NCBI GenBank assembly: GCA_945907065.1
Contig: CAMDSC010000001.1
Coordinates: 97,190-161,189 of the forward strand
Origin: Chitinophaga pinensis
GTDB lineage: Bacteria > Bacteroidota > Bacteroidia > NS11-12g > UBA9320
DNA: 64,000 bases
Reading direction: 5' to 3'
Made by a program: the position numbers and the translations under genes. The notes under the pieces were generated by a model, which had not been told where the DNA came from, did not search any database, and saw only the letters and a list, made by a program, of their open reading frames with translations. Positions 9,882 to 34,624 of the stretch are shown piece by piece. Each line of letters starts with the position of its first letter. The first letter of the stretch is position 1.

Positions 9882-9957
9882 GGGTTGAGGGTTTTATGGT
9901 TTAGAAGTTTATGGTTTAGAAGTTTATGGTTTAGAAGTTTAGGGTTTAGAGGTGTTT
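9882..9957. repeat. Tandem array of a 15-bp unit GGTTTAGAAGTTTAT (5 units, the outer ones degenerate)
   Basis: Units at 9882, 9898, 9913, 9928 and 9943. The array fills the gap between the epimerase start (9877) and the 4HB gene and runs into its last codons and stop (9939-9941). Confidence 0.9.
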
Positions 9958-10310
9958 AAGCTATTTCTTAAACCGGAAAGTTTTGAGGCAATGCTATCTA
10001 TTAGTTCTCTAATGTTAGCAAGAGTAGCATCGGTAATGTAATTCAAATCTTTAGAAATAATTAGTTGATTTAATAATTCCATCATACTACTGTATGCAAT
10101 TTTATAAAAGTTCGCCTGATCTCGTTTTGTTGTCCTTCCTGAACCTTCTGCAATATTTGAACTAATGGAAATAGAAGCTCGTCTCATTTGATTTGTAAGC
10201 CCAAATACTTCATCAGAAGGAAAAAGTTTTGTTAATTTATAAATCAAGGTTACTAATTTTCTTGAATCTTGCCAAACAGTGAGTTTTTCAAATGAATATT
10301 CTTTTGCCAT
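9939..10310 (-). CDS. Four-helix-bundle protein (TIGR02436 / 23S rRNA intervening-sequence protein family, Avd-like fold)
   Basis: 123 aa. Shows FEKLTVWQDSRKL...QMRRASISISSNIAEGSGRTTKRDQANFYKIAYSSMMEL, the family's signature pattern. Confidence 0.8.
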   Translation of the reverse strand: MAKEYSFEKLTVWQDSRKLVTLIYKLTKLFPSDEVFGLTNQMRRASISISSNIAEGSGRTTKRDQANFYKIAYSSMMELLNQLIISKDLNYITDATLANIRELIDSIASKLSGLRNSLNTSKP

Positions 10311-10325
10311 TGGACCGTTAATTGC

Positions 10326-10462
10326 TTAGGGTTAATGAGTTTAGGGGTTTAGAAGTTTAAGGTTTATCGGTTTTAGAGAGGAGGGAATAAATTAATTTAA
10401 AATTTTGAGTTGAATTATAAACACTAAACCCAATAAACACTAAACCAGATAAACTCTAAACC
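10326..10462. repeat. Inverted pair of arrays of the 15-bp unit, forming a potential long hairpin
   Basis: Direct-orientation units lie at 10326-10380 (for example GGTTTAGAAGTTTAA at 10346-10360). After an AT-rich spacer of about 36 nt come three reverse-complement units ATAAACACTAAACC(C) at 10417, 10432 and 10447. Confidence 0.85.
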
Positions 10463-10465
10463 AAA

Positions 10466-17225: not shown

Positions 17226-17277
17226 ATTTCGTTTTATAAATTTCGTGGCAATTAATAACTTATTTCTGATATAATGA

Positions 17278-19464
17278 TTACAAATTTTCTAAAATGAAAT
17301 TTGTCATTAATGTAAATAAATGCAAACGGGTGTTTCCGCCTGATATACCGTGGCTTTTATTAGGATAATAAGCGGATTGAAACGGTTTGTTTTGTTCTAC
17401 CATTTTTTCCACCATCTCTGCTGAATTTTGAAAATGAACGTTATCGTCTCCAGTTCCATGCACCAAAAGGTATTTTCCTTTTAATTTTTCAACCATATTT
17501 ATTGGGGAGTTGGAATCATATCCTTCGGCATTATTATTTGGCAATTGCATATAGCGTTCAGTATATATATTATCATAAAATCGCCAGTTGGTAACAGGTG
17601 CCACGGCAATGGCAGCTTTAAAAAAATCGGCTCCTTTGGTAATGCAAGTACTGCTCATAAATCCGCCATAACTCCATCCCCAAATACCAATTCGTGAAGC
17701 ATCAATATAACTTTGACTTCCAAAATATTTAGCAGCACTTATTTGATCGTCACTTTCATATTTGCCCAATTGCTTGTAGGTCATTTTTTTAAACTCAGAT
17801 CCTCGGGCTCCTGTTCCACGATTGTCTACACAAGCTACTATATAACCCTTTTCATTGGCCAACATTTGGTGCCACCAATAATTACCTCCACCCCAACTGT
17901 TCAATACCTGCTGTGAACCCGGCCCCCCATATACAAACATTAACAATGGATATTTTTTATTGGGGTCAAAATCTTTAGGTTTAATTATCCAATAGTTTAA
18001 ATTAATATTATTTTCAATAGGTAATTGACCGAATTCAGCTATCGAAATTTTATAATCCAGCATCCTTGTAGTTAATACTTTGTTATCTTCCAAAACTCGT
18101 AATACAGCTCCTGAACCATTGCAAATACTTGTAATAGCCGGAGAATTAATAGTAGATGTGGTATGCAAAAAATAACTAAAATCGGTACTGAAGGCTGCAG
18201 AATGCATTCCCGCTGCTGCTGTTAATTCAATTTTATTTTTACCATCCAAATCACTTCTGTAAATGTGTTTTTCTAGCGATGAATTTTCAAACGATGAATA
18301 GTACACTTGTTTTGTAGCCTCATTATACCCCAAAATATCAGCCACATCCCAACTGCCTTTTGTGGTTTGCATTATTTCAGGGCCTTCTACTTTGTGTAAA
18401 TAAATGTGACGAAACCCATCCCGTTCACTGGTTAGCAACATTAATTCGCCACCGGGTAAAAATTCAAGGTCGTCAGAAATATCAATATAATATTTATCGG
18501 TTTCTTCGTGTGCTACTCTTGTTTTTCCTGATTTTGTGTCGGCTAACAAAATCTCCCATTTATTTTGCAATCGGTTCAATCGTTGGATGGAAAGTAAGGC
18601 GTTGTTCTTGGTCCATTTTATTCTTGGTAAATATTGGTCGTTTTCTGAACCTGTTTCCATTTTCTTTGATTTACCGCCTTTTATGGAGTAAACAAACACA
18701 TCTACTTTTGAATTGGTTTCTCCTGCTTTTGGATATTTAAAGGTTGTAACTCTAGGATATAATCCTTCAAACATGGTCATCGAAAATTCAGGAACATTGG
18801 TTTCATCAAACTTGTAATAGGCGATGGCCGAGCCATCTTCGTTCCACTGAAAACCTGAACTCATACTAAATTCTTCTTCATACACCCAATCTACGGCTCC
18901 GTTAATAATGGAGTTGCGTTTACCATCTTTGGTAATAGTTTTGATTTTGTTGTTTTTAAGGTCTTTTACAAACAAATTATTTTCAAAAACATAAGCAACA
19001 TATTTTCCAGTGGGGTCAAATGTGGGGTACATTATTTTAGAAAAGACTACTTCGGTAATTTCAGAAGTAACAATATCTAAAATATACGTTTTAGCGGCTG
19101 AACTGTGACGGTAAATTTGTTCTGTTTCGTTGGTTAAAATGGCTTGGGTTTCAGTTGAATTAAATTGAAACCCATCAAACTGAAACTCCTTTAAACCGTT
19201 TGCTTTTGCAATTCGGCCATTGTGAATTAAGGTATCCACAGTATTCCCGGTTTCGTAACTATATTTAACCACAAACTGTCCTCCCGTTTTTGTACTCACA
19301 TTTTGGCAATAGGTTTTGCCGTCTTTTAATGGCACAAAACCTGAAACCCCTTTGGCAGCAAAGGTTCTGTTTTTCCAAATATCTTCAAGTGTTATGCTTT
19401 TTTGGGCAAACAGAAATATAGTATTTGCAATAAAAAAAGCTAAAATAGTTAATCTTTTAATCAT
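17278..19464 (-). CDS. Dipeptidyl-peptidase IV (S9B family serine peptidase)
   Basis: 728 aa with a signal peptide and beta-propeller N-half. The nucleophile elbow is GWSYGG, and the GTGDDNVH and HG motifs complete the Ser-Asp-His triad. Confidence 0.9.
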   Translation of the reverse strand: MIKRLTILAFFIANTIFLFAQKSITLEDIWKNRTFAAKGVSGFVPLKDGKTYCQNVSTKTGGQFVVKYSYETGNTVDTLIHNGRIAKANGLKEFQFDGFQFNSTETQAILTNETEQIYRHSSAAKTYILDIVTSEITEVVFSKIMYPTFDPTGKYVAYVFENNLFVKDLKNNKIKTITKDGKRNSIINGAVDWVYEEEFSMSSGFQWNEDGSAIAYYKFDETNVPEFSMTMFEGLYPRVTTFKYPKAGETNSKVDVFVYSIKGGKSKKMETGSENDQYLPRIKWTKNNALLSIQRLNRLQNKWEILLADTKSGKTRVAHEETDKYYIDISDDLEFLPGGELMLLTSERDGFRHIYLHKVEGPEIMQTTKGSWDVADILGYNEATKQVYYSSFENSSLEKHIYRSDLDGKNKIELTAAAGMHSAAFSTDFSYFLHTTSTINSPAITSICNGSGAVLRVLEDNKVLTTRMLDYKISIAEFGQLPIENNINLNYWIIKPKDFDPNKKYPLLMFVYGGPGSQQVLNSWGGGNYWWHQMLANEKGYIVACVDNRGTGARGSEFKKMTYKQLGKYESDDQISAAKYFGSQSYIDASRIGIWGWSYGGFMSSTCITKGADFFKAAIAVAPVTNWRFYDNIYTERYMQLPNNNAEGYDSNSPINMVEKLKGKYLLVHGTGDDNVHFQNSAEMVEKMVEQNKPFQSAYYPNKSHGISGGNTRLHLFTLMTNFILENL

Positions 19465-19629
19465 GGTTCAATATTACTCTTTTTGAAAAATTAGTTGTCA
19501 ATTTTCTATCGATTTTTATTTTATAATGGTAAGTGGAATTTCAAAACTGTTTTCATTTCTAAATGATAATAATCATGTTCAAACAATTCTAAAAAACTAA
19601 TTGGTTTAAGGTAATTTTGCCACTCATTT

Positions 19630-20811
19630 ATGCAACCCTTCGACCTTACATTTTCAAATACCAAAGTTGCTTTTCAGCACATGAGTGATGCTGAAGTTAA
19701 AAAAGCAAAGTTCATTTTCTCAATATTTAATTTTTCGTTTTTGGTAAAGTATGGTCCTGGCCTATCCACTTTTTGTTTAAAGATTGGATTGCCGATAAAG
19801 GGAATTATTAAAAACACGGTTTTCTGGCAGTTTTGTGGTGGCGAAACTATTGATGAATGCGATTATACAGTAAACACTTTATGGAAGAATCGGGTAGGAA
19901 CTATTCTTGATTATTCGGTAGAAGGGCATGAAGATGAAGCTAGTTTTGAAGTAAATGTAAAGGAAATTAAAAGTACCATTTTAAAAGCGAAAGGAAAACC
20001 ACAATATCCGTTTTGTGTATTCAAACCCACCGGTATTGCCAGTGTTACTTTGCTCGAAAAAGTAGATGCCGGCATAAAATTAGATAATGATGAGTTAAAC
20101 GAATTTTATAATACTAAAAAACGATTTGAAACCCTCTGTCAAGTGCCTGCCGATAGTGATATGCGCTTGTTTGTAGATGCTGAACTATCGTGGATGCAAA
20201 AAACAGTGGATACATTAGTTAATGAAATGATGGCCAAACACAATCAGCAAAAGGCTTTGATTTTTAATACCGTTCAATTGTATAAAAAGGATCAGGTAGA
20301 GCTAATGAAAAAATGGATTGCCGAGGCCAGAGAAAAGAAATATTTTGTAGGGTTTAAATTGGTGCGAGGTGCTTATATGGAAAAGGAAGCCGAGCGGGCT
20401 TTGAAAATGGGTTACCCAAATCCTATCAATGATACCAAGGAAGATAGCGATAGGGATTATAATGAAGCCTTAAAATTATGTTTTGATAACTGCGATATTG
20501 TTTCGGTTTGTGCCGGAACGCATAATGAAGAAAGCTCCTTGTATTTAGCTAAACTGATGAACGAAGGAGAAATTGAAAACAATGACTCGAGGTTTTGGTT
20601 TGCACAATTGTTTGGGATGAGTGATACTATAAGTTTCAACCTTGCAGCTAAAGGCTACAATGTGGTTAAATATTTACCTTATGGCCCCATAAAATCGGTA
20701 ATGCCATACCTTGGCCGCCGGGCCAAAGAAAACAGCAGCATGGCCGGACAGATGGGCCGGGAACTGGCTTTGCTGGTTCAGGAATTGAAAAGGCGGAAGT
20801 CTGAGAAATAG
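19630..20811 (+). CDS. Monofunctional proline dehydrogenase
   Basis: 393 aa with the (beta-alpha)8 PRODH pattern: ILDYSVEG, LVRGAYMEKE and the C-terminal YLGRRAKENSS. Confidence 0.8.
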   Translation: MQPFDLTFSNTKVAFQHMSDAEVKKAKFIFSIFNFSFLVKYGPGLSTFCLKIGLPIKGIIKNTVFWQFCGGETIDECDYTVNTLWKNRVGTILDYSVEGHEDEASFEVNVKEIKSTILKAKGKPQYPFCVFKPTGIASVTLLEKVDAGIKLDNDELNEFYNTKKRFETLCQVPADSDMRLFVDAELSWMQKTVDTLVNEMMAKHNQQKALIFNTVQLYKKDQVELMKKWIAEAREKKYFVGFKLVRGAYMEKEAERALKMGYPNPINDTKEDSDRDYNEALKLCFDNCDIVSVCAGTHNEESSLYLAKLMNEGEIENNDSRFWFAQLFGMSDTISFNLAAKGYNVVKYLPYGPIKSVMPYLGRRAKENSSMAGQMGRELALLVQELKRRKSEK

Positions 20812-22577: not shown

Positions 22578-25500
22578 TTATCGTTTTAAAAATAGCGTTC
22601 CCTTAATCATTTTATTGGCTGTCTTTTTAGCTTTGAAGGTAAAATAGTATATATAAATTCCTTCTGGACAAGGCTCTTCCTTAAAGGTTCCATCCCAGCC
22701 ATCTTTATAATTTTTACTATCAAAAACCTTTTCACCCCAGCGGGTAAAAATTGCTAAATGAGAGTTGGACACAGCCGCTGTTTCAAACATGAAAAGGTCA
22801 TTAATTCCATCTCCATTAGGCGAAAATGCTGTAGGTAATTCAAAGGCATCATTATCGGTAACACATATTTTTTGAACGAGGCTGTCTTGGCAATTTCCTT
22901 TATTGGCAATTTTTAATTTTATATAATAATATTCTGATAACCCATCATATAAATGAGAAGGATTGATAGCAGCATTGTAAGGAACTAGTGTGCCATCCCC
23001 AAAATCCCAATAGCCAGTATCAGCACCTGTACTTAAATTAATAATTTGAAGCAATGGGTCGTGACTATTTAGGCACTTTCCATTGGGAGAATATGTGAAA
23101 TAAGCCTGAATAATGGAATAGCCTGGAATATTTACTGTGGTATCATATTTACAACCGGTAAGAGTATTTGTAACATACACTCTATAACTGTTTCCGGCAG
23201 GAGCACTAACTGTAGCTGAAGTTTGAGGCGGAGTAGTATTCCAATTGTATTTGAAAGGCCCCGCTCCGTTCATAGTTAAATTAATATATCCCGGAAATCC
23301 ATAACATTGTTTCGGGCTAGAGGTGCTGGTACTATTCATTGATGGATGCACATAAAGTAACTTTTGCTTGACCACAGAATCACTGCAACCATCTTTTAAA
23401 GTTACCGTATAAAAAATGCTTTTAGTCCCTAAAACAAATATGGATTGTACGTCTGTTTGGCCGCTGCTCCATTGGGTATTGTAATTATTTGAACCACCTT
23501 TGGCTTTAGCAGTAAGTGTAACTGTTGTTCCAACACATACCGAATCTCTATTACTTGTAAAATCAAGTTTTAAAGTGTCGGCAATGGTTATTATTTGTGA
23601 GGTTTGGCTCACACATTTACCGGTTCCAAATTTATAAGTAATAGTATGGCTGCCAGAACCTGCTGCCTTGGGATTAAAAGTGCTTCCTGATATTCCGCGG
23701 CCAATCAATGTTCCGCCAATGGGGGAGAGGTTTAAATTATCAATGGTGTCTTTTAGACAGTAGTAATTTTGCAAACCTAAAAATGAAACTTTCGGTAAAG
23801 GTTTAATCCGTATTTTTATTGTGTCCACACATTTGCCGGGCAATGCAAATAAAATCTTGTTTATTCCTGTATCAGCTAACGCCGGACTAAACATCCCTAA
23901 GGCGCCATTGGAGATTCCCTTACCACTAAAAGTTCCTTTTTTTTCTCCATTATATAATTTAAAAGGATCATCAGCTATGCAAAAAACAGTATCTTTTTGA
24001 ACATTAGCCCTTGGATAAATACGGATTATCAGAGTGTCTTTGCATCCGTGAGCATCCCCAATTATTTGATGAAAGGTTCCTTTACCTGCCAGCTTAGGAC
24101 TAAATTTTTGATAATAAACATTCGTTCCAATAATGGCACTACTTCCTGTGAAATAGACATCCCACGGGTCGTTTTTCACAAAATTATATTGTAAAGGAAA
24201 GGTGGTATCCGTTTCACAACGCCGAACGGTATCAGTATAAAAACGAGTATACCGCAAGTACATTATTTTAACATCTTTGCACCCATTGGGCGAAGTGTAT
24301 GTTAAGTTGGTTTGAGTAAAAGTAGATTTTCCTGGAACTCGAAAAGTGTCAGCATCAAAAATTCCATTTACTTTATCAAAAATTCCTTTACCGCTCCAAA
24401 ATCCTCCAGATGGTAAACCGACAGGTAAAGTTCTTTGGCCTGCATCAGGACAGGCAATTTCATCCCATCGGGCATCCACCCCTTGAATGTTTCGTTTTAA
24501 GGTGTCTTTACAACCATTAATGGTATAAATATAAAGCTTGTTCCCAGCTCCGGCAGTGTTTGGTGAATTAATACCAAGCGTGGCATTATTCACCCCTGGA
24601 CCAGACCATGTCCCGCCTTTTGGAGTAAATTTAAAAGTGTCAGCCGCTACTGATTGGCAAAGCGTGTCTATTTTTTTAATAATAATTCCATCAATATTTA
24701 TAGTTTTGTTAGCTGTGCAGCCATTCCAAGTATAGGTTACTGTAAACGGACCGGCAATGGCCGGAGGTGTAATTAATCCTGCTGAAGTAATATTAGGGCC
24801 ACTCCACGTTCCACCTGCCGGTGAAAAATTGGAAACCATAAAAGGCGCTGCTCCTGGACAAGATGCATTCGGTGATCCAGCATTGATGGCTCTAACCGTA
24901 ACTATTACCATATCGGTGCAATTAGCTAATTTGTAAGTAATATTAAAGGTCCCACTTTTTGATACTCCGGGGTCAAAAGTTCCGTTGGTAGCATTGATAA
25001 TTCCTGTGCCCGACCATGAGCCGCCAGTAGGGGTGGCGCTTAAATTAAATGGTCCGCTGGATTGGCAAACACTGGTGTCTTTTTGAGCCACTGGAGGATC
25101 AACTACTGTAATCAATATAGTATCTCTTCCTGGAACAGAAACACCATCTGTTACTTCCAAAATATAAGTTGTGGTTACCGATGGACAGGGCGATTTCGGC
25201 GGTTTTCCTGTAAGGCCACCACTTAACCAGTTATAGACATATTTTGTGGGGTCACCACCTGTTAGGGTGGCCGTTAATGTAACACATCCGCCTTTGCAAA
25301 CGGTGTCTTTTGTGGTTTTTAAAATAACTCTAATCGGGCAATCAGTAATCTTAAAATTAAGTTTTGCATTTATTTTCCAAATACTATCGCAGGCATCTTT
25401 AAAGGTGCTGTTAAAATCTAAAACGTAGTTTCCGCTTTGATCTAAGCCGGAGGCGAATGTAACATCAAACGTATTCGTTTCATTTTTACCATCGCAATTT

Positions 25501-26132
25501 ACGCCGGTAGCACTTGCAATTGCAGTAGATAAAGTCCCACTCAATTTAAAATTTTGAGCTTTTATCGAATCGCAATTAAATTTTTGGTCAAGTACCACTC
25601 GTATTTTACTTGTGCTGCAAGTGGGATTGGAGATGGGAGTAAAAGTAGGCTGTCGCACTTTTGTTATTTTAGCCCTCCAACTCAGTTCAAAGCCATCACC
25701 GTTTACATATTTATCGGAGTGAAAGTAAAAAGTAATGCAACTGTCGGAACTCGAAATTCCCCCCGAAGGTTTACTGCTGTTATCGTATTTTCTTATTAAA
25801 GTGGCACTGGTATCTTTACCGTTAAAAACTTTCAGAAAATCAGCTTTTGCTTCCACATCAAAATTTCCGGTAAATGTTATATCTATTTTACTGGCCCCAG
25901 TAACGCAAATTGTAAATATAAAATCTTCACCACTGGAATACCATTTGGTGTTTACCGTATTTCCCTCGCTGTCTGTTAATTTGCCACGGCAATCATACAC
26001 CTTGGTGTTACCCATTTTGTAAGTGGTTTGGGCATTTAAATACGAAACCGGAAATAGCAGACATATTACTATCCATCGAGTTAGTTTTACCAACTCGTAT
26101 TTAAAAAGTGAATATTTCTGAGGTTTAATCAA
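22578..26132 (-). CDS. Large secreted T9SS substrate (type B / gliding-motility-associated C-terminal domain) with an N-terminal CUB-like module
   Basis: 1184 aa with a signal peptide ending NAQ. The CUB-like region is YDCRGKLTDSEG...ADFLKVFNG...GFELSWRA. At least six repeats carry P.GG.WSG.GI...G.F.P. The C-terminus FSPNGDGINDLF...FTRWGEKVF...WDGTF...GIYIYYF matches the TIGR04131-type CTD. Confidence 0.85.
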   Translation of the reverse strand: MIKPQKYSLFKYELVKLTRWIVICLLFPVSYLNAQTTYKMGNTKVYDCRGKLTDSEGNTVNTKWYSSGEDFIFTICVTGASKIDITFTGNFDVEAKADFLKVFNGKDTSATLIRKYDNSSKPSGGISSSDSCITFYFHSDKYVNGDGFELSWRAKITKVRQPTFTPISNPTCSTSKIRVVLDQKFNCDSIKAQNFKLSGTLSTAIASATGVNCDGKNETNTFDVTFASGLDQSGNYVLDFNSTFKDACDSIWKINAKLNFKITDCPIRVILKTTKDTVCKGGCVTLTATLTGGDPTKYVYNWLSGGLTGKPPKSPCPSVTTTYILEVTDGVSVPGRDTILITVVDPPVAQKDTSVCQSSGPFNLSATPTGGSWSGTGIINATNGTFDPGVSKSGTFNITYKLANCTDMVIVTVRAINAGSPNASCPGAAPFMVSNFSPAGGTWSGPNITSAGLITPPAIAGPFTVTYTWNGCTANKTINIDGIIIKKIDTLCQSVAADTFKFTPKGGTWSGPGVNNATLGINSPNTAGAGNKLYIYTINGCKDTLKRNIQGVDARWDEIACPDAGQRTLPVGLPSGGFWSGKGIFDKVNGIFDADTFRVPGKSTFTQTNLTYTSPNGCKDVKIMYLRYTRFYTDTVRRCETDTTFPLQYNFVKNDPWDVYFTGSSAIIGTNVYYQKFSPKLAGKGTFHQIIGDAHGCKDTLIIRIYPRANVQKDTVFCIADDPFKLYNGEKKGTFSGKGISNGALGMFSPALADTGINKILFALPGKCVDTIKIRIKPLPKVSFLGLQNYYCLKDTIDNLNLSPIGGTLIGRGISGSTFNPKAAGSGSHTITYKFGTGKCVSQTSQIITIADTLKLDFTSNRDSVCVGTTVTLTAKAKGGSNNYNTQWSSGQTDVQSIFVLGTKSIFYTVTLKDGCSDSVVKQKLLYVHPSMNSTSTSSPKQCYGFPGYINLTMNGAGPFKYNWNTTPPQTSATVSAPAGNSYRVYVTNTLTGCKYDTTVNIPGYSIIQAYFTYSPNGKCLNSHDPLLQIINLSTGADTGYWDFGDGTLVPYNAAINPSHLYDGLSEYYYIKLKIANKGNCQDSLVQKICVTDNDAFELPTAFSPNGDGINDLFMFETAAVSNSHLAIFTRWGEKVFDSKNYKDGWDGTFKEEPCPEGIYIYYFTFKAKKTANKMIKGTLFLKR

Positions 26133-26134
26133 AT

Positions 26135-26596
26135 TTACTTTGTAATGGTTATTACATCCGTTTTTACACTATTACTCCAATTTCCGGCCCTGTCTTTAAG
26201 TCGCAATTCAAAAGTTGTTATTTCACTATCAGCAGTACCTAATAAAAAGGTGTTCTTTATTTGAACCGCGATGGTTCCTTTTACTTTAATATTTGCATTA
26301 GGTGGAGTTAATGGTTTAACAAAATAATAATCAGGTTTACTTAGTCGCTGGTCTTTTATTTGCAAATCATTTAGGTCAGGATTGGTTTCACCAATATCGC
26401 CATCGCCATCAGTGTATTCAATCGTTATAATCAAACTATCTTTAAATTGCTTTAAATTTTTTGAAGAAACCGATACCAGTCTTAATAAAGGATTGGGATT
26501 AGCAACAACTACTTCCTCTTTTTTGCATCCTGAAATAGCAAGAAGTATCAAACTGATAAATAAAATTTGGTGTTTAATTAGTTTTATATTCATCAC
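26135..26596 (-). CDS. Small lipoprotein, function unknown (beta-sandwich-like)
   Basis: 153 aa with lipobox AISGC and a YTDGDGDIGE acidic loop. It lies 2 nt from the T9SS gene and overlaps the upstream gene by 4 nt. Confidence 0.6.
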   Translation of the reverse strand: MMNIKLIKHQILFISLILLAISGCKKEEVVVANPNPLLRLVSVSSKNLKQFKDSLIITIEYTDGDGDIGETNPDLNDLQIKDQRLSKPDYYFVKPLTPPNANIKVKGTIAVQIKNTFLLGTADSEITTFELRLKDRAGNWSNSVKTDVITITK

Positions 26597-27555
26597 TTAA
26601 TACGAATAGCAAAATATTTTTTAAGATTAAACGAAGTGGTGGTTTCAGGTAAATAAACCGCCGGATTGACCTTGTCGGAAGTTTGGGTTCTAAACCAAAT
26701 AACGTCGTTAGAAACAGCACCCAAATTACTTACTTGAAGGGTAATAGTATGCCAATAATCAACCATAGTGCCCAAAACTCCTTTGGCACTGTATGGTGAG
26801 GATTCTGTAGTCATGGTTTGTTCAGTTCCTGTATAATCATTTGGATTTAAGGAGTTATTAAGAGTTGTTGGTCCCAGAAGATTGACGGCTGTTTTATCGT
26901 CAGCAAAGGCTATCATTATTTTTATACTGCTGGTTCCCGGAGGTAATTCCACCGGCTGATAATTAGCATGAGGCAATGGGGTAGAAGAGCCATTGGCAAA
27001 AACAATCATACCTGCTATTTGTGGTTTAAAGTCATTATCCAAAGCACTTTTGCCAAATTGGTCCTTAGCTCCATCCTTTATCCAATTGGTGATATTTTCA
27101 ATATATTGAAGTTTTTTTGTTGGCCAATCACTTCCAGGGTCTGTTGTTAGAGGCATTTGTCCTTGTGAACCTTGAATATAAGTCAATATTCGGTGTAAAA
27201 GCATACTTACATCTGGGTCGCCTGGAACTACACGTTTTACAAACTGTGCATTTTGAGGGTCGGTATTGGTAGCTAATCGGTTTATTAATGAGTTGTAGGA
27301 GCTTTCAATACTTCTAAAATCAGGTTCAAAATTTCCATCATGACAACCACTGTTAGCACAGGTTGGTTTAAAAATATTTTTATGTAAACCCTGAATTGTA
27401 TTAGGATCAATTTTTAAATCAGGCATTATTTCGCCTCGGGTAGTTGTATTCCATGTGTTATAAGGATTGGAACTGTCTGCACCACTATCTTTTTTACATG
27501 AAACATTAAATATGCTGATAAAAGCCAATAGGATATAGAGTTGTTTTTTTATCAT
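26593..27555 (-). CDS. Lipoprotein with a PSCyt-like (planctomycete cytochrome c-like) segment carrying a non-canonical C-x4-CH
   Basis: 320 aa with lipobox NVSC. KPTCANSGCHDGNFEPDFRS...VVPGDPDVSMLLHRI...QMPL parallels the PSCyt pattern C..CH...L....vvpG.p..S.L..r......MP. Confidence 0.55.
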   Translation of the reverse strand: MIKKQLYILLAFISIFNVSCKKDSGADSSNPYNTWNTTTRGEIMPDLKIDPNTIQGLHKNIFKPTCANSGCHDGNFEPDFRSIESSYNSLINRLATNTDPQNAQFVKRVVPGDPDVSMLLHRILTYIQGSQGQMPLTTDPGSDWPTKKLQYIENITNWIKDGAKDQFGKSALDNDFKPQIAGMIVFANGSSTPLPHANYQPVELPPGTSSIKIMIAFADDKTAVNLLGPTTLNNSLNPNDYTGTEQTMTTESSPYSAKGVLGTMVDYWHTITLQVSNLGAVSNDVIWFRTQTSDKVNPAVYLPETTTSFNLKKYFAIRIK

Positions 27556-27558
27556 CTT

Positions 27559-28887
27559 TTAAATTCTTTCAAACAAACTTTTAGCTTGTGAGTCAATTAA
27601 TCCTGCACCTTGTACTTCGCTCTTGTATCCAAGTATTTCAGCTATAGTTAAATTAAAATCCGTTACTTTTCCAATCGGATTAGCTTCATTTCCTACCATT
27701 AAATTTGCTGGAACGTTTGGCCCAACCATACCACCAAAAACTCTCAATGAGTTAGCATCTCCGTGGTCGTATCCATACCAATCATTTGCATCCATTATAG
27801 GGTTATGATCTTTGTTTCTTCCACATTCCGGCACAAAACACATAATAGTTTTACCGCTCATTTCAGGAATTTGAGTTTCAATATAATTCCACAAAAATCC
27901 TAAAGCATGATCGGCTCGGTGCATGGCTTGTATGTAACCGGTAAAGTTGCTGTGGCAGCCATCAATTCCGCTCATATTTACTACCAATAGTTTTGGTTTA
28001 AAAACACGTAAAACCTCTGCAGCATAACCTATTGTAGCTCCATCTCCACCACCTACGGGCGGCATTGGCAATTGACCTGCGGCTTGCCTAACAAAGGTAT
28101 TGGATATAAATTCTTTAATTTTTGTTCTCTCGTCGTCGGTGTTTCTTATTCCTGGCATATCTCCCTTTTTTATGTTAAATGAATTATCTAAAAAATTCTT
28201 CATTTTATACATAGGTTCTAGTTCTTCTTGTGGGTGATAAATTTTAGCATTTTGGAGTGTGGCATAGCCGTCGCTACCGAAGGTGATATTTGGAGCAAAG
28301 AAATTTGCGCCGTATGGCAATCCAAAATCAGGGTGGTTACTTGAATTTAATAAAGGAAGTGAGTTGCCGATTGAATTTCCTATAAACCATGTATCAGTAG
28401 CTTTAAATCCACCAAACCGTCTTGCATATTCAAAAACCGTTGGATTTATCGGTCTTACTTTAAGTCCTTGTCCTGCCACCCCACTGCCTGTTATTAAAGA
28501 GTTTAATCCACCATAATGTCCTCCAGAAATAGCTCGCATTTCAGAAAATATGGTCCCTTGTTTTTGAATGGTTTTGGAAAGTATTTTAGGTATAGGCTGT
28601 GTGCCACCTTCCCCTATTCCATAAGCAATTTTACTGGTTGGTGGTGTTCCTTCCAACATATTATGCAATAGATTTCCTTCAGCAGCAAAATCTTGACTAT
28701 CGGCCAAATAGCGTTGCAATATTGAATCCTGCTGACGCAATCCTCCACCAAATATTACATAAACCACATGTTCAGCCAATGGAGCATTGGTTTTGGCAAA
28801 TAATCTACCCGATGGCAAAAGATAGGGCATAACCAAACTTCCAGCGGTTAGTGTAGCGGCTTTTTTAACAAATTCTCTTCTTTTCAT
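27559..28887 (-). CDS. Tat-signal DUF1501-like (alkaline-phosphatase/sulfatase-fold) protein
   Basis: 442 aa with twin-arginine motif KRREFVKKAATLTAG. VVYVIFGGGLRQQDS near the N-terminus and VPECGRNKDHN...YDHGD...VTDFNLTIAEILGY near the C-terminus follow the DUF1501 layout. Confidence 0.6.
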   Translation of the reverse strand: MKRREFVKKAATLTAGSLVMPYLLPSGRLFAKTNAPLAEHVVYVIFGGGLRQQDSILQRYLADSQDFAAEGNLLHNMLEGTPPTSKIAYGIGEGGTQPIPKILSKTIQKQGTIFSEMRAISGGHYGGLNSLITGSGVAGQGLKVRPINPTVFEYARRFGGFKATDTWFIGNSIGNSLPLLNSSNHPDFGLPYGANFFAPNITFGSDGYATLQNAKIYHPQEELEPMYKMKNFLDNSFNIKKGDMPGIRNTDDERTKIKEFISNTFVRQAAGQLPMPPVGGGDGATIGYAAEVLRVFKPKLLVVNMSGIDGCHSNFTGYIQAMHRADHALGFLWNYIETQIPEMSGKTIMCFVPECGRNKDHNPIMDANDWYGYDHGDANSLRVFGGMVGPNVPANLMVGNEANPIGKVTDFNLTIAEILGYKSEVQGAGLIDSQAKSLFERI

Positions 28888-28893
28888 AATCTA

Positions 28894-29400
28894 TTAATAA
28901 AACATGTATTCATCAGATGCTGAAAAGGAAGAATAAACCAGTTCGGGTCTGAAATTTGGATTTGCTTTGCTCGAATTTATAAAATTTATAAACCACGTTT
29001 TTTCAGCCTCTGTTGGTCTTCTTATGAAAAATCGAATATAAGTGTCCGTCACAAATTTTTCAGTACTATCCAGCATAAATTTTCGGGTTGGGAGTTTTAC
29101 AAAACTGGTGTTCATATAATTACTGATGATAACTTCATTTATTAAAGTTTTATCGCCACAACTTTGAATTACCCTATCGGTTCGTGTTAATTCATTAATT
29201 GACGAAGGTTTTTGAAACAAGTTTGTAGTTAAAATACCGTGAAACTCAATATTGGTTTTATCCTTGTCTTTATTAAGGTTATCACCAAAAGAAGGAGTCT
29301 CAACAACCTCGTAATTTGTAATTAGCTTTTCTTTTTTGCATTGAACAAAAAACAAAACAGCTAAACTGAAAAAGGCGATTTTAAAAATGGGCATATTCAT
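28894..29400 (-). CDS. Lipoprotein, function unknown; C-terminal module paralogous to the upstream gene
   Basis: 168 aa with lipobox FVQC. Shows YIRFFIRRPTEAEKTWF...ASDEYMFY at the C-terminus. Confidence 0.55.
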   Translation of the reverse strand: MNMPIFKIAFFSLAVLFFVQCKKEKLITNYEVVETPSFGDNLNKDKDKTNIEFHGILTTNLFQKPSSINELTRTDRVIQSCGDKTLINEVIISNYMNTSFVKLPTRKFMLDSTEKFVTDTYIRFFIRRPTEAEKTWFINFINSSKANPNFRPELVYSSFSASDEYMFY

Positions 29401-30295
29401 CTGTCATTAATATTAAAGTTTGAACTTTTTGTAGGTCTTTGGTCGAATAATAATCTTGTATTAAATTAAAGCTTTCTTGAGTTGTCGGCTCACGGCCTAT
29501 TAAAGTAAGGTAACACCATTTTATCATGCTTTCATGATATTCAATAGATTGAACCAACATTTGGCAATATTCAGGTTTGTTACCCGCATAGCCGCCAAAC
29601 AAGCTTCCAGCTTTTCCCTTATCAATAATATCATAAGCTATTGCAAATTCGTCACGGGTTGGAAACCTGAACAACATGTTGTCAAAACTTGCATTTACAA
29701 AATTTAAACTATTCATATTTATCACATCATAAATAGGATTGTCGAGCATATAGGCATACATATCACTTATTTTTATTTTGCCCAATTGGTAATTTCGCCT
29801 CGAATTGATAACATTCAAACATCGGTCAATGGTAACCATTGCTGAGAATACACCAATGGAATCTCCAAGTAGCCGTGCTACTTTAAGAGCAAATTTGGCA
29901 TTGCCAATTTGCTGATAAAATTCTTCTTCACCAGCCCCTTCTAGCAAACGAGCCTTTGTTAAATCATAAATTCTTTGATAATATGCCCTCTTGTAGGATG
30001 AATCACCAATAACAAAACCGGTATCGGTCATTAGGCGTGTAATAAGTCGTTTTCGGCTTTCAAAGTTTAGCTTATTAGCTCTTAAGGTATCTACATCTCT
30101 TATTTTTTCAGTATTCAATGGTTCACGACCCAACAAATCAATGTATATCCGGTTAATATAATTTTCAACTTTTACAGTAGATATATCATCATAATTTTTA
30201 GGTTTATTTACACTTACCTCAATTGTTTCTTTCGTTTTGCAGGAAAGAAGCAAGATTGAAAAGGTGAAAACAAAGAATAAGAGTCTTTTTAGCAT
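29381..30295 (-). CDS. Lipoprotein with two LxGREPxxxE modules (DUF1549/DUF1800-like candidate)
   Basis: 304 aa with lipobox LLSC. Shows YIDLLGREPLNTEKI and YLTLIGREPTTQESF, and ends LMTDEYAHF. It is the first gene of the six-gene operon. Confidence 0.55.
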   Translation of the reverse strand: MLKRLLFFVFTFSILLLSCKTKETIEVSVNKPKNYDDISTVKVENYINRIYIDLLGREPLNTEKIRDVDTLRANKLNFESRKRLITRLMTDTGFVIGDSSYKRAYYQRIYDLTKARLLEGAGEEEFYQQIGNAKFALKVARLLGDSIGVFSAMVTIDRCLNVINSRRNYQLGKIKISDMYAYMLDNPIYDVINMNSLNFVNASFDNMLFRFPTRDEFAIAYDIIDKGKAGSLFGGYAGNKPEYCQMLVQSIEYHESMIKWCYLTLIGREPTTQESFNLIQDYYSTKDLQKVQTLILMTDEYAHF

Positions 30296-30511
30296 AATTT
30301 TATTTCACAAGTTTATAAAAAAAAATCATTAAAATGACGATTATTTATTTTTTTAATTCTTTTAGATAGCTTTAAGACGAATTTAAAATTCTTTCTGTGA
30401 CAAGTTGTTTTTATATTAATCGAATTAATTTTCCATTAAGTCAATAAATATTAAATATAAAGATTGTCTTTTACTCAAATTTGGCTTTGGTTTGCCTTCT
30501 CAAATTTTAAT

Positions 30512-32671
30512 ATGAAAAATTTTAAAGAATACGTTTTCTTATCCATTGGTGTATTGTTTTTGTCAGTATCTGTTTTTCTTTCTAATTCGGCCAAGGCTCA
30601 AGATAAAATATTTACCATAGAAGAAGCTGTGCTGGGTGGTGGCGGAAAATTAATTCCTAAAAACTTAGACCAATTGCAGTGGGTGAGTGAATCATCTTAT
30701 TATTCACAAGCAGTTGGAAGCACTATTCAGGTAACGGATGCAAAAACGAATAAAGTTGTTTATACAATTTCAAAAACTGAAGTGGATTTAGCTTTAAAAA
30801 GTTCAGGATTGGATACTTTAAAAAAACTTCCTCGCATAGCCTGGTTAAATTATAATAATTTTAGATTTAACCATGCTAATAAGTTTGTGGCATACGATGT
30901 TGCCAAAAAAATTACCTATAATTTAGTTGATTATGATGCAGCGGAAATGGAGAATGCTGATTTTACATACAATTATAAAAAGGTGGCCTACACCAAAGGC
31001 AATAATTTATACATTAACGATAAGCAAATAACCTTTGATGATAAGCCGGGAATAGTGAATGGTCAAGCGGTTCACCGCAACGAATTTGGAATAGTAAAAG
31101 GAACTTTTTGGAGTAATGATGGGGGGCAATTGGCTTTTTATCATTTGGATGAGCACATGGTGGCCGAGTATCCTATTTATCAATTGAAAACTCGCCCGGC
31201 TGATGCCCGTATGATTCGCTACCCGATAGCAGGAACGCCAAGTCATCATGCTTCAGTTGGTGTTTATAACACCACCACAAATTCTACGGTATTTCTTAAA
31301 ACAGGTGAACCTTTGGAACAATATTTAACCAATATTTCATGGAGTCCTGATAATAAATCGGTATTTGTAGCCATTGTAAATCGTGCACAAGATCACATGC
31401 GGCTTAACCAATATGATGCCGCTACCGGAAACTTTGTAAAAACCTTGTTTGAAGAAACGGATGCAAAATACGTGGAACCACAACATGGTATGACCTTCAT
31501 AAAAACCGACCCTTCCAAATTTATTTGGTGGAGCGAGAGAGATGGTTATAATCATTTGTATTTATATGATGTTTCAGGAAAATTAATCAGTCAACTTACC
31601 AAAGGAAATTGGGTGGTTACGGACTTGAATGGTTTTGATAAATCCGGCAAAACGTTATTTTATACCTCCACAGGATTGAGTCCAACAGAAAGGCATTTAG
31701 TAAGTCTGAATTTAAAAACAAACAAATCATTTCAACTAACCTACAGACCGGGAACACATACCTTATCATTAAGCCCAAACGGCGATTGGTTTATTGATCA
31801 TTTTCAAAATGCGACCACTCCCCGCGAAATAAGGATTATTTCGGCTGATGCAAACAAGGAAACTGTAATCCATTCTGCTCCAAATCCTTTATCAGATTAT
31901 AAATTAGGCGAAATCACCATAGGAACTTTAAAAGCGTCTGATGGTAGCGATTTATACTATCGATTGATAAAACCTGTAAATTTCAATCCAGATGCCAAAT
32001 ATCCTGTGGTGGTTTATTTATACAACGGCCCACATTTGCAATTGGTAAATAATACCTGGCTCGGAGGTGCTAACCTATGGATGCAATACATGTCGCAACA
32101 TGGGTATTATGTTTTTACAATAGACGGAAGAGGTTCTATGAATCGGGGACATGCATTTGAGGCAGCAGTTCACCGTCAGTTGGGAACTTTGGAAATGGAA
32201 GACCAGTTAAAAGGTGTAGAATATTTAAAATCCTTGCCCAATGTTGAAGCTACCAGAATTGGAATTCATGGCTGGAGCTTTGGAGGATTTATGACCACAA
32301 GTATGATGACTCGTAATGCAGGAGTTTATAAAGTAGGTGCAGCCGGCGGACCAGTTATCGACTGGGGGCTGTATGAAATAATGTATACAGAACGCTATAT
32401 GGATACTCCTGAAGAAAACCCTGAAGGGTATAAAAATAATAACCTTCTTAACTATACAAAAAATCTAAAAGGGAAATTATTAATGATTCATGGATGTGAA
32501 GATGATGTGGTGCTTTGGCAACACTCATTGCAATACGTTGAAAAATCCATAAAGGATAATGTTCCTACTCTAGATTATTTTGTTTACCCGCACCATCCTC
32601 ACAATGTATCGGGCAAAGACCGGGTACATTTAATGGACAAAATTTCGAGATACTTTTTTGATAATTTGTAG
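30512..32671 (+). CDS. S9-family prolyl/dipeptidyl peptidase (DPP-IV-like paralogue)
   Basis: ATG 30512 gives MKNFKEYVFLSIGVLFLSVSVFLSNSAKAQ (signal peptide); the track start 30464 is TTG. The nucleophile is GWSFGG, with HGCEDDVV and HPHNV completing the triad. Confidence 0.85.
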   Translation: MKNFKEYVFLSIGVLFLSVSVFLSNSAKAQDKIFTIEEAVLGGGGKLIPKNLDQLQWVSESSYYSQAVGSTIQVTDAKTNKVVYTISKTEVDLALKSSGLDTLKKLPRIAWLNYNNFRFNHANKFVAYDVAKKITYNLVDYDAAEMENADFTYNYKKVAYTKGNNLYINDKQITFDDKPGIVNGQAVHRNEFGIVKGTFWSNDGGQLAFYHLDEHMVAEYPIYQLKTRPADARMIRYPIAGTPSHHASVGVYNTTTNSTVFLKTGEPLEQYLTNISWSPDNKSVFVAIVNRAQDHMRLNQYDAATGNFVKTLFEETDAKYVEPQHGMTFIKTDPSKFIWWSERDGYNHLYLYDVSGKLISQLTKGNWVVTDLNGFDKSGKTLFYTSTGLSPTERHLVSLNLKTNKSFQLTYRPGTHTLSLSPNGDWFIDHFQNATTPREIRIISADANKETVIHSAPNPLSDYKLGEITIGTLKASDGSDLYYRLIKPVNFNPDAKYPVVVYLYNGPHLQLVNNTWLGGANLWMQYMSQHGYYVFTIDGRGSMNRGHAFEAAVHRQLGTLEMEDQLKGVEYLKSLPNVEATRIGIHGWSFGGFMTTSMMTRNAGVYKVGAAGGPVIDWGLYEIMYTERYMDTPEENPEGYKNNNLLNYTKNLKGKLLMIHGCEDDVVLWQHSLQYVEKSIKDNVPTLDYFVYPHHPHNVSGKDRVHLMDKISRYFFDNL

Positions 32672-32674
32672 AAT

Positions 32675-34624
32675 TTAATTAAACAACCTCCAGTTTACCC
32701 CAAATCGAAAGAACCTTGGTGGATTAGGATAGAGCGGTGTGCTATAATACCTGTTGCCGGTTAGTCCTTGATTGATATGCTCAAAACGAATAAATAAATT
32801 CATGGTTTGAACCTGGGCACTCATATAAAAATCAAAGTATGGATAGTTGCCAATTTTGGTGGTGTTTTGCCAAACAAACTGACGAATGTAAGGATTAAAT
32901 GCATCCGCATAATAGCTGCTAAACCAATAGTAATCTACCCCGATACGGGCTAACATATTTTTTTTAAAGAAACGGTTTTCAAAAAACACACCGCCCGAAA
33001 GGGAAAGTTTTGGAAGATGAAAAGTTTGACTTATTTCTTGATAACTCAATCGGTTGTGCCAGTTCATTTTACCAAATTTTAGATTATTGGAAACGAATAC
33101 CTCTAGGTAATTAAAATCAACTCCTTTAGGTGCTGCTTCAAAAAAATAAATATTGTAATTCTGGAAATTAGAAGCTGTAAATCCTGCTTTTAATTGCAAT
33201 GGAATCCATTCCATAGAAGCATCTAAACCATTGCGGTAGGTTGGTTTAAGGGTTTGGTTCCATTTTATAGGCGCTGTAAAACCAAGGGTTTGAAAATAAT
33301 CAGCCACATGGCGTTGGCTGCTAAATTGGGCATTCAGTTTAAATTTATCTTTTATCAAAAGTTTAGCACCGGTTTGCAATAGGTAATCTTTACTGTTGTA
33401 TCCCGCCATAAATATTTGACCATTTCCGTTTAATTCTATTTCTCCAAATTTTGAAGTTAAAGCGGCTATAAGCATTCCATTTAACGAAAGATTATAAAAA
33501 GCCTGCTGACCTGTAAAATTGTTAAACACCCCGTAATTGCTATATTCAGCACCTGCTTTTATAAGGTTACTAAATTGTTTGTAGCTCGTTTTAATAACCA
33601 CTCCTACTGCATTGGTCACTTCTTTCATAACCATCGAATCGTTGATTCCATCTGAAAATATAGTTTGATAATAAGGTGTGTCGGCTGACAGGTCTTTATA
33701 TCTAAATATTGAGCGTGAGGCATGAAACGTATGATAAAAATATCCTTTAGGGGCAAAATCCAAACCCAAAGTGTCTATAGTATTTGAGTCTCTTTTTTGG
33801 GTTATTAAACTGGTTTTGCCAAAACGGTAATACTGTTTTAAAACAATAGCCGGTTGATTAATACTATTGCTAGCATTGGCCAATGGATTTTCAAACACGC
33901 GGCGTTTGCCCGATGTAGTATCAAATGAGAGTGAATTTAATAATCCTCCTGTTTCTCTAATTACATTTTTATTATATGTCACCGCTCCTAAGAGGTAATA
34001 TTTATCAGATTTCGAGCGGTAACTCGAAAATAGTTTCAGGTTATAAATACTTGGAATCTTTACGTTGTAATCGCTACCTTTAACCAATTCAAAAAGGTAA
34101 TTATTGGTTTTCATACGACGGTAATCAATCCCCACATTCCAGCGGTTATTTATATTTTGTGTATGTAAAATATCAATAAATATTAATCCTTTGGCACCTT
34201 GCGAATAATTAAGTTTGGAATAAGGTGTTGGAGCTATAATTATTCGTTCATCACTTCCGGTATGGTTATATAACCAACTGTTCATTCTGTTAAAACCCAA
34301 ATCAAAACCGGTTGTTTTGGTGGTGGTTAAACTTAAAGGTTGACTAGGAGTTCCTATAAGCCCTAAGTCTTGATAAGCTTGGTTTTGTTTGCTGTATGGA
34401 TTGAGTTGATGAAAACCATTTAAGGAAGTATCAAAATCCTGAATATTATTTTTTAAAGATTCAAAATCCTGAATGGAAATGAATAATGGCCGTACCCTTT
34501 TAACAATCTTTTTTGAGGAATCTGATTGCCCCATAACCATTACTGATATGGCTACAAAAAATAGTAATGATAGGGCTTTCGTGATTTTCAAAATGGAATT
34601 GCAAATATATTGCCTCTGCCTCAA
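32675..34624 (-). CDS. Outer-membrane beta-barrel protein (Bacteroidota 'putative porin' type)
   Basis: 649 aa with a signal peptide. It shows alternating aromatic/hydrophilic beta-strand periodicity throughout and the terminal strand FRFGVNWRLFN. Confidence 0.6.
   Translation of the reverse strand: MRQRQYICNSILKITKALSLLFFVAISVMVMGQSDSSKKIVKRVRPLFISIQDFESLKNNIQDFDTSLNGFHQLNPYSKQNQAYQDLGLIGTPSQPLSLTTTKTTGFDLGFNRMNSWLYNHTGSDERIIIAPTPYSKLNYSQGAKGLIFIDILHTQNINNRWNVGIDYRRMKTNNYLFELVKGSDYNVKIPSIYNLKLFSSYRSKSDKYYLLGAVTYNKNVIRETGGLLNSLSFDTTSGKRRVFENPLANASNSINQPAIVLKQYYRFGKTSLITQKRDSNTIDTLGLDFAPKGYFYHTFHASRSIFRYKDLSADTPYYQTIFSDGINDSMVMKEVTNAVGVVIKTSYKQFSNLIKAGAEYSNYGVFNNFTGQQAFYNLSLNGMLIAALTSKFGEIELNGNGQIFMAGYNSKDYLLQTGAKLLIKDKFKLNAQFSSQRHVADYFQTLGFTAPIKWNQTLKPTYRNGLDASMEWIPLQLKAGFTASNFQNYNIYFFEAAPKGVDFNYLEVFVSNNLKFGKMNWHNRLSYQEISQTFHLPKLSLSGGVFFENRFFKKNMLARIGVDYYWFSSYYADAFNPYIRQFVWQNTTKIGNYPYFDFYMSAQVQTMNLFIRFEHINQGLTGNRYYSTPLYPNPPRFFRFGVNWRLFN

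Follow-up and report, generated by a model that had tools for sequence, protein, structure and literature searches.

The window analysed here, a stretch of 64,000 nucleotides (nt) from an assembly labelled Chitinophaga pinensis, carries on its minus strand a run of six open reading frames (ORFs), g1 to g6, which spans positions 22578-30295 and constitutes a conserved operon-like cassette, co-inherited and not a chance run of genes. The gaps from g1/g2 to g5/g6 amount to -20, +6, +3, -4 and +2 nt, and the ORF list thus agrees in gene number, strand and spacing with the original prediction, an earlier reading of this DNA from its letters alone. The spacings were computed from maximal ORFs, with GTG as the start codon of g5 and TTG as that of g6; if g5 began at the next ATG, its spacing to g4 would be -1 rather than -4. 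The genes, with lengths in amino acids (aa), and the spacer in front of them are:

29381..30295, minus strand: g1, 304-aa lipoprotein with three LLGRxPxxxE (phycobilisome-linker/DUF4214-type) helical modules (ORF, family alignment)
28894..29400, minus strand: g2, 168-aa lipoprotein with one clear module of this kind and a conserved C-terminal SDEYxFY (ORF, family alignment)
27559..28887, minus strand: g3, 442-aa twin-arginine-signal protein with a predicted alkaline-phosphatase-superfamily fold (AlphaFold2, Foldseek)
26593..27555, minus strand: g4, 320-aa lipoprotein with a helical PSCyt1-like N-domain and a C-terminal Ig-like beta-sandwich (alignment, AlphaFold2)
26135..26596, minus strand: g5, 153-aa lipoprotein with an acidic Y-x-D-G-D-G-D-L-G loop (ORF, family alignment)
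22578..26132, minus strand: g6, 1184-aa signal-peptide protein with CUB, repeats, PKD and the C-terminal domain (CTD) of type B cargo of T9SS, the type IX secretion system (Pfam, TIGR04131)
30296..30463, no strand: AT-rich 168-nt spacer from g1 to a divergent DPP-IV gene, a presumed promoter region from its position only

All six genes recur in identical order and orientation in 71 of 86 related loci. Another 13 are incomplete solely through contig ends, and in the last two (L014 and L034) g1-g4 are followed by unrelated genes in place of g5 and g6. The flanking genes vary in every related locus inspected, and because the order is kept while the inspected flanks differ, the arrangement goes beyond chance. 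Most loci also repeat the 4-nt overlaps and the 20-nt overlap between g1 and g2. Compared with the window protein, g3 of the related loci is from 56 to 98% identical and thereby the best conserved of the six; the range for the other five is from 29 to 95%. These counts answer a check proposed with the original prediction, whether the gene neighbourhood is conserved across Bacteroidota, in the affirmative. The cassette occurs as one copy per locus examined, and hundreds of uncultured Bacteroidota species from fresh and marine waters carry it; no cultured host was seen among the cassette loci. As to the two deviating loci, two tandem copies of a 200-aa lipoprotein replace g5/g6 in L014 (positions 3937-5417), and the unrelated genes of L034 lie at 6906-7652.

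Searches with g3 retrieved 980 homologues, all unnamed and without Pfam domains; among those listed, the only name given is 'hypothetical protein', save for one entry tagged as a twin-arginine signal domain. An exhaustive g3 profile search returned 823 representative clusters. A scan of one genome per species found g3 relatives encoded in 474 species-level genomes, the best 80 of which are all Bacteroidota-labelled metagenome-assembled genomes (MAGs). Three lake MAGs with the cassette (L007, L021 and L029) are labelled 'Chitinophaga pinensis' though uncultured; the name may be a placeholder and is not trustworthy.

The twin-arginine protein and the cytochrome-like lipoprotein

The N-terminus of g3, MKRREFVKK, bears a twin-arginine motif in which R3 is invariant in the family alignment; most members of the wide g3 family have RR or RK, and the Pfam model TAT_signal matches two members weakly. 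The AlphaFold2 model of g3 (pLDDT 77.5, pTM 0.83) was matched by Foldseek to sulfatases, alkaline phosphatase, phosphonate monoester hydrolases and LtaS/YejM domains (E 2e-7 to 1e-5, TM about 0.4), and because of these matches the modelled fold is assigned to the alkaline-phosphatase superfamily. PDB sequence searches with g3 and its profile returned nothing significant, no curated Pfam or NCBIfam family, enzyme families included, matches g3, and neither g3 nor 31 homologues matched Pfam DUF1501 (PF07394; gathering threshold 27 bits) even at E <= 10. Two distant relatives of g3 give sub-threshold DUF1501 matches of 14.7 and 17.1 bits. The distant relatives, most of which carry RR motifs, reach the thresholds of Sulfatase (5.9e-10), Phosphodiest (3.5e-10) or Metalloenzyme (1.8e-10), and these three models outscore DUF1501.

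For a comparison at the level of profiles, the reference consisted of nine proteins annotated as DUF1501 and encoded on plasmids of Haliscomenobacter, Chondrinema, Singulisphaera, Catenovulum and Saccharobesus. Using hhalign, the g3 family aligned with them collinearly over 395 columns (E 1.4e-4) at a modest probability of 53%, with GGvRQQe paired to GGPSQld, GHY to NH, VDgCH to WDxH, PECGRN to GEFGRT and yDH to RDH. The nine-sequence alignment was needed for this match, as a single DUF1501 sequence gave nothing against the g3 profile. The invariant Ser and Asp of DUF1501 (GGPSQLDxFD) align to Arg51 and Leu57 of g3, and all but one of the 47 wide-family members (46) retain R51. Near-universal in the 47-sequence wide alignment are GGxR51xxE, H124, PTxFEYxR, D309, H312, D326, (E/D)354-(C/H)355-G-R357 and H375; two members at the edge of the family, P0248 and P0252, have NPP-like DGxR and TxTxPxH instead and pass the Phosphodiest threshold.

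Judged by the active sites of NPP and alkaline phosphatase, one metal site of g3 is intact (D309, H312, H375) and the second keeps only the (D/E)354-(H/C)355 pair. Missing are the Asp that follows strand 1 and the Ser/Thr nucleophile, both used by classical superfamily members. Because both are gone, g3 appears to represent a separate family beside DUF1501 and not a member of it. The original prediction had described a Tat (twin-arginine translocation) protein with the DUF1501 layout; what holds of this is the Tat signal, the fold and the collinear hhalign match, and what does not is the Pfam DUF1501 model and the invariant Ser and Asp. A further peculiarity is the segment PYILPSGRLFA (residues 21-31), which lies inside or just past the Tat signal, is kept in 110 of 120 homologues and is retained by the distant g3 protein of L088 as LPFILPSGRLFAAT. 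Such conservation is unusual for a cleaved signal peptide, and the segment may serve in docking or stay uncleaved as an anchor.

The g4 protein carries the motif CANSGCHDG, in which C66-x4-C71-H72 is invariant, as are M134-P135 and the family motif P-x-C-x4-C-H-D-G-x-F-E-P-x-F-R. All 120 listed orthologues share C-x4-CH-DG-x-FEP, followed downstream by an MP, and in most of them the lipobox holds the sole further Cys. The distance from His to Met is 62 residues, and the domain comprises an N-terminal helix and a long C-terminal helix. Because of this distance and the terminal helices, the N-domain would have the layout of a small class-I c-type cytochrome and probably binds haem. Covalent attachment is suggested by the invariant C-x4-CH with MP 62 residues on. 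The low AlphaFold2 confidence at the motif fits this: in the model (pLDDT 84.6; helical N-domain, C-terminal Ig-like sandwich), residues 67-75 are the sole low-confidence stretch of the N-domain and coincide exactly with the Cys motif.

A set of 28 PF07635 proteins was retrieved with a PSCyt1 consensus, which the matches confirmed to be real. Against this set, hhalign gave g4 a probability of 80% (E 1.3e-5) over 54 columns, corresponding to g4 residues 107-166 and the pattern VPG..S.L..R...MP...I..WI..GA; against full-length PSCyt proteins the probability was 50%. We infer a distant relationship of the N-domain to PSCyt1. The PSCyt-like segment originally assigned to this protein is thus recovered as a profile-level match to PF07635, not by the Pfam PSCyt1 model and not as a CxxCH motif. 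A PDB search with the g4 profile found nothing significant, and the best 120 matches listed for the profile were orthologues only, without PSCyt1 relatives. Elsewhere in the window, positions 81-1160 encode a di-haem cytochrome c peroxidase (CCP_MauG), because of which c-type cytochrome maturation can be regarded as available in the organism.

Small lipoproteins and the surface protein

In the families of g1, g2, g4 and g5 the lipobox Cys is invariant and usually followed by K-K-(D/E), a pattern without a clear match to the acidic surface-export signal of lipoproteins; no localisation is claimed. In g1 this residue is Cys19, invariant in 27 homologues and the only conserved Cys; in g2 it is Cys21, invariant in the family alignment. 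The modules of g1 are IDLLGREPLNTE, LTLIGREPTTQE and a third, degenerate copy, NMLFRFPTRDE, which adds to the two LxGREPxxxE modules that had been foreseen and are both present. The single module foreseen for g2 is present too, in the form FFIRRPTEAE (FFVRxPTEAEK in the family), and resembles LxGREP without being a literal copy. The alignment of both families by hhalign has a probability of 74% across the module.

The g1 profile matches the REP domains of ApcE, the phycobilisome core-membrane linker, in the PDB (E 6.8e-6), and the window protein scores 20.3 bits with the Pfam phycobilisome linker model (cut-off 28.7), 13 bits with DUF4214 (cut-off 23.2) and 14.6 bits with PSCyt2/DUF1549 (PF07583; threshold 29.8). 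Sub-threshold matches in the g1 family are to DUF4214 (17 of 27 members), PBS_linker_poly (16/27, best 8.4e-9), PSCyt2 (13/27, best 1.3e-4; covering the N-terminal LLGR-type module only) and PSD1 (4/27). In the g2 family, DUF4214 is weakly matched by 16 of 26 members (best 1.7e-5) and PSD1/DUF1553 (PF07587) by one. The sub-threshold matches of g1 and g2 centre on the short LLGRxPxxxE helical module common to phycobilisome linkers and DUF4214.

Real PSCyt/DUF1549/DUF1553 proteins contain an LLGR-like module near the C-terminus, and their DUF1549 region opens with a related module. When g1 and g2 were aligned with such proteins by hhalign, the probabilities were 12% and 0.5%, respectively. The core motifs of DUF1549/DUF1553 (CxxCHDHKxDP; NRxW...DFG...HPxLLDWLA) have no counterpart in g1 or g2, and no g1, g2, g4 or g5 family member matched DUF1800 (PF08811) at E <= 10. 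Because the conserved cores lack a counterpart and the probabilities are this low, g1 and g2 appear to share a building block with DUF1549/DUF1553 proteins and are not demonstrably split versions of them. The proposal that a large PSCyt/DUF1549 partner had been split into the separate lipoproteins of the cassette is not supported by these comparisons.

The loop of g5, YTDGDGDIGE in the window, is as originally described for this small lipoprotein. C24, D63, G66, D67, G69 and D74 are invariant in the family, and the loop is of the DxDxDG type and possibly binds Ca2+. A g5-like gene in the Myxococcales MAG L098 carries YKDGNGDLG. No Pfam or PDB relative was found for g5, and PDB searches with the g2 and g5 profiles gave nothing significant. 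In Pfam and NCBIfam scans of the proteins and family alignments, g2-g5 of the window matched no family and g1 gave sub-threshold matches only. The proteins g1-g5 thus belong to no curated family, and no protein of the cassette bears a family name.

By sequence criteria, g6 qualifies as a genuine CUB-containing T9SS type B cargo. It scores above the curated cut-offs for CUB (PF00431; residues 48-151, 33.9 bits, E 4.4e-8, cut-off 21.4), CHU_C (PF13585; residues 1098-1184, 72.7 bits, E 2.7e-20, cut-off 27) and the type B model TIGR04131 (55.4 bits, E 5e-15, cut-off 35), in agreement with the 1184-aa CUB-plus-repeat protein with a type B CTD of the original prediction. A PKD domain is matched at residues 1012-1077 (E 1.8e-4), and Cys-rich Ig-like/SprB-like repeats are present; a PDB sequence search with g6 found nothing significant. 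Orthologues of g6 occupy the same position in 71 loci. In six of the related loci a PorP_SprF gene follows directly (PF11751 in L102), so that the cassette has seven genes; this gene lies at 14666-15685 in L102 and at about 13300-14250 in L072, L077, L080, L083 and L084. By tblastn, no PorP/SprF gene was detected in the 64-kb window. According to a published anchoring model, type B cargo is anchored via an adjacent PorP-like partner (PMC9143113), and the gene pair in the six loci agrees with it. The organism has a T9SS, as judged from the gene for a T9SS plug protein at positions 41253-42539 of the window.

Portable core and neighbourhood

Beyond the closely related loci, parts of the cassette recur in the following combinations:

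L098, Myxococcales MAG, G+C content 70%: genes resembling g1 to g5, order unchanged, -4 overlaps, no g6
L103, Bacteroidota-like: g1-g5, no g6
L088, G+C content 33%: g1, g2, g3 and the Cys-motif domain of g4 only
L087, G+C content 71%: g2-like domain fused C-terminally to a 1153-aa PKD protein, whose gene immediately precedes a g3-like one
L099 and L100, G+C content 60-61%: g3-like gene, then a 1120-aa protein with faint multi-haem matches, then (in L100) a PSCyt1-TPR protein

The portable unit consists of one or more LLGR-module proteins, a Tat protein like g3 and, in most cases, a protein resembling c-type cytochromes; in terms of the cassette this is g1-g4, mostly with g5. Because g1-g5 occur without g6 in the Myxococcales MAG and in some Bacteroidota, g6 is an add-on, specific to Bacteroidota and present in most but not all Bacteroidota carriers. 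The linkage of the core to a T9SS surface protein, a central element of the original prediction, is therefore real in 71 loci but lineage-specific, since the core also occurs without g6.

In L087, the 1153-aa PKD-repeat protein (positions 4529-7990) contains several LLGR modules and a g2-like domain ending in SQEYLYY; its gene lies 10 nt upstream of that for the g3-like Tat protein. It is a fused version of the small lipoproteins, and the layout resembles that of canonical PSCyt/DUF1501 loci, where a large partner precedes DUF1501. No cytochrome gene was called within the 17-kb stretch of L087. The 1120-aa protein encoded after the distant g3-like gene (L099, 8282-11644; L100, 4569-7931) has faint matches to multi-haem cytochrome c7/c3 and LVIVD, and the PSCyt1-TPR protein of L100 is encoded at 8820-11458. 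P0226, in which 997 aa seem to unite an LLGR module with a g3-like domain and multi-haem motifs, was set aside because it resembles a frameshifted mistranslation of high-GC DNA.

In the window, the cassette is bordered upstream by the 168-nt spacer and the divergent DPP-IV gene and downstream by a convergent gene of the UbiA family. Scans of the cassette region for sigma-70-type promoters, the Bacteroidota -7 motif and terminators performed no better than on shuffled sequence, the spacer (30296..30463) contains no exact match to TAnnTTTG, and a PADLOC scan for defence systems returned nothing relevant. On the two sides of the cassette (15513-20811 and 30464-32671) lie genes for two DPP-IV/S9 peptidases, a proline dehydrogenase and a peptide transporter of the POT family. 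They constitute a neighbourhood of peptide and proline catabolism, which was not seen in the other loci inspected in this respect (L001, L003, L005). Further on lie genes for an outer-membrane protein of the Porin_10 family (32675-34624) and for a 615-aa protein (36286-38133) in which a C-terminal Sulfatase-family domain (residues 271-531) stands behind a long N-terminal region. The latter resembles membrane enzymes of the LtaS/phosphoethanolamine-transferase type and is the second, classical alkaline-phosphatase-superfamily gene of the window.

Interpretation and relation to known systems

Our best guess is that g1-g6 specify a periplasmic metalloenzyme/cytochrome complex tethered to the outer membrane, an anchoring that is assumed, together with a surface binding protein. 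In such an arrangement, g6 would bind a particle or polymer at the cell surface, and the membrane-tethered g1, g2, g4 and g5 would form a scaffold holding g3 in the periplasm, with g1 and g2 probably acting as scaffold or docking subunits. The metal centre of g3 would act on an anionic group resembling a phospho- or sulfo-ester, by binding or cleaving it, and the haem of g4 would supply or remove electrons or sense the redox state. That g3 and the haem of g4 handle an anionic ester-like group within a membrane-tethered periplasmic complex, linked to surface material bound by g6, is the reading to which we tentatively incline, without regarding it as established or even probable.

Several points weigh against it. 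No named homologue supports any activity for the cassette proteins, and g3 may not be a hydrolase at all because the classical catalytic Asp and the nucleophile are missing. For g4, Foldseek matched the beta-sandwich only and no cytochrome, a Pfam scan of 27 members at E <= 10 produced no PSCyt1 (PF07635) match, and the Cys spacing is C-x6-CH in the homologue from the Myxococcales MAG versus x4 in Bacteroidota. The profile-profile probabilities are modest (53% for g3/DUF1501 and 80% for g4/PSCyt1), and protein-protein contact, lipoprotein topology and co-transcription are what we infer. The picture of capture followed by processing is further weakened because g6 is dispensable for the core.

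The dispensability of g6 bears equally on a different explanation, according to which g1-g5 are an accessory set that matures, loads or anchors g6 as an SprB-like adhesin, with g3 non-catalytic like the periplasmic domain of YejM/PbgA. This would agree with the type B CTD and the SprB-like Cys-rich repeats of g6, its translational coupling to g5, kept in 71 loci, the PorP/SprF gene after g6 in six loci, and a g3 that lacks the classical nucleophile and has YejM and LtaS domains among its Foldseek matches. However, the core occurs without g6 in the Myxococcales MAG, whose phylum is not known to possess T9SS, and in the Bacteroidota loci L103, L014, L034 and L088. Moreover, g3 is the best conserved protein and has a full set of metal ligands, which would be unexpected for a mere chaperone, so that we consider an accessory role unlikely. 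Independence from g6 is the premise of another proposal, a periplasmic redox module in which the cytochrome g4 and the metal centre of g3 would exchange electrons and so oxidise or reduce a small soluble substrate, with g1, g2 and g5 as tethers to a membrane. The invariant C-x4-CH...MP of g4 speaks for it, as do the multi-haem or PSCyt1 proteins adjoining distant g3-like genes (L099, L100), the c-type cytochrome genes in canonical DUF1501 loci, and Tat export, which is typical of cofactor-containing redox enzymes and has been argued for DUF1501 too (PMC3542564). On the other hand, no redox cofactor-binding motif was recognised in g3, and no cytochrome gene was called alongside the g3-like gene in the 17-kb stretch of L087. 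Redox chemistry is also not what the alkaline-phosphatase superfamily is known for, and a module of this kind likewise seems improbable to us.

Still less credence is given to the idea that g3 is a conventional phosphatase, phosphodiesterase or sulfatase that scavenges nutrients with the help of lipoproteins, as in Pho-regulon or polysaccharide-utilisation systems. Its appeal lies in the fold of g3, which matches sulfatases, NPP and alkaline phosphatase, in the NPP-like edge members P0248 and P0252 that pass the Phosphodiest threshold, and in the glycoside hydrolases near canonical DUF1501 loci. Against it, practically all of the g3 family has substitutions both at the metal-binding Asp behind strand 1 and at the nucleophile, the cassette, whose inspected flanks vary, has no conserved SusC/SusD, glycoside hydrolase or Pho genes as neighbours, and no curated Pfam or NCBIfam enzyme family was matched; we regard this explanation as very unlikely. 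Finally, the idea that over-called ORFs or unrelated hypothetical genes came to lie side by side by chance, to which the uninformative promoter and terminator scans might lend some colour, is refuted by the conservation data: 71 of 86 loci share order and spacing, the proteins being 30-60% identical and the inspected flanks different, and each protein family has many invariant residues. It is practically excluded.

A bolder form of the periplasmic-complex reading can be put forward as speculation that is more probably wrong than right by a wide measure. In this form, g1-g4 and usually g5 would be an undescribed envelope machine common to Bacteroidota and Myxococcota, in which a nucleophile-less g3 and a C-x4-CH cytochrome carry out redox-assisted chemistry new to the superfamily; the machine would be the minimal modular form of the PSCyt/DUF1501 systems, wired in Bacteroidota to a T9SS surface protein and acting on captured material.

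The larger systems in question are themselves known but uncharacterised. DUF1501 proteins pair with PSCyt1/PSCyt2/PSD1 proteins of unknown function, in modules that are multi-copy in genomes of the Planctomycetes-Verrucomicrobia-Chlamydiae group, frequent in some freshwater Verrucomicrobia MAGs, and located near sulfatase and glycoside hydrolase genes (PMC3542564, PMC5615132). These two reports confirm what the original prediction had stated about the pairing, including that its function is not established, and the literature searched assigns no function to the modules. Their hosts are Planctomycetota, Verrucomicrobiota, some Bacteroidota and Gammaproteobacteria. The cassette described here presents the same problem in far smaller form, with an enzyme-like protein, a putative monohaem domain and three small lipoproteins encoded by separate genes. 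If the relationship is true, separate expression and work on haem, metal and interactions would be simple, and results might carry over to the large fused proteins. The cassette also defines at least five conserved protein families without a Pfam or NCBIfam model, and in it the type B cargo of a T9SS is coupled to a periplasmic module instead of being left alone with PorP. It thus offers a compact, dissectable way into a long-standing problem, limited by the modest remote homologies.

Canonical loci with PSCyt1-PSCyt2(DUF1549)-PSD1(DUF1553) and DUF1501 (L089, L091-L097) were used for direct comparison. In them, the large LLGR-module/PSCyt protein is encoded directly upstream of DUF1501 and c-type cytochrome genes lie nearby. 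In L089 (8001-12673) and L090 (8001-12044) the canonical PSCyt1/PSCyt2/PSD1 genes appear as several short ORFs, and the DUF1501 protein of L089 matched the plasmid DUF1501 proteins over 78% of the length only; the short ORFs probably reflect frameshift errors of the assembly and not a natural split.

With respect to g3, the NPP/Phosphodiest (PF01663), Sulfatase (PF00884) and Metalloenzyme (PF01676) families share the fold and the order of the motifs DxxH, (D/E)(H/C)G and DH. They differ in that the Asp after strand 1 is Gly in g3, the position of the Thr, Ser or formylglycine nucleophile is not conserved, an invariant GGxRxxE stands where they have DGxR, and g3 itself has no sequence-level match to them. 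The phycobilisome linker REP (PF00427) and DUF4214 (PF13946) domains have the YxxLLGRxPxxxE...SxEY pattern in common with g1 and g2, whereas the window proteins fall below the Pfam cut-offs and are lipoproteins of a Bacteroidota organism that does not photosynthesise; the annotated genes of the window and of the related loci examined included no phycobiliprotein partner. The SprB/SprF pairs resemble g6 in the type B CTD (TIGR04131/CHU_C), in SprB-like repeats and, in the six related loci, in the adjacent PorP_SprF gene. Unlike SprB, g6 carries a CUB domain at its N-terminus and is the last of a coupled set with five genes upstream of it, and it has no PorP/SprF in the window.

The closest likeness is to the PSCyt/DUF1501 modules. 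Both contain a Tat-signal alkaline-phosphatase-superfamily protein directly downstream of an LLGRxPxxE-module protein; in both, the cluster also encodes a PSCyt1-like Cys...CH...MP domain and the genes are tightly coupled. In contrast to these modules, no cassette protein passes their Pfam models, g3 lacks Ser65 and Asp71 of DUF1501, and g4 has C-x4-CH instead of CxxCH and is encoded downstream of g3 instead of forming the N-terminus of a large partner. Four small lipoproteins replace one protein of 800-1100 aa, and g5 and g6 have no counterpart. Taken together, the cassette looks like a small, split-up and distant relative of the PSCyt1-PSCyt2-PSD1 plus DUF1501 modules.

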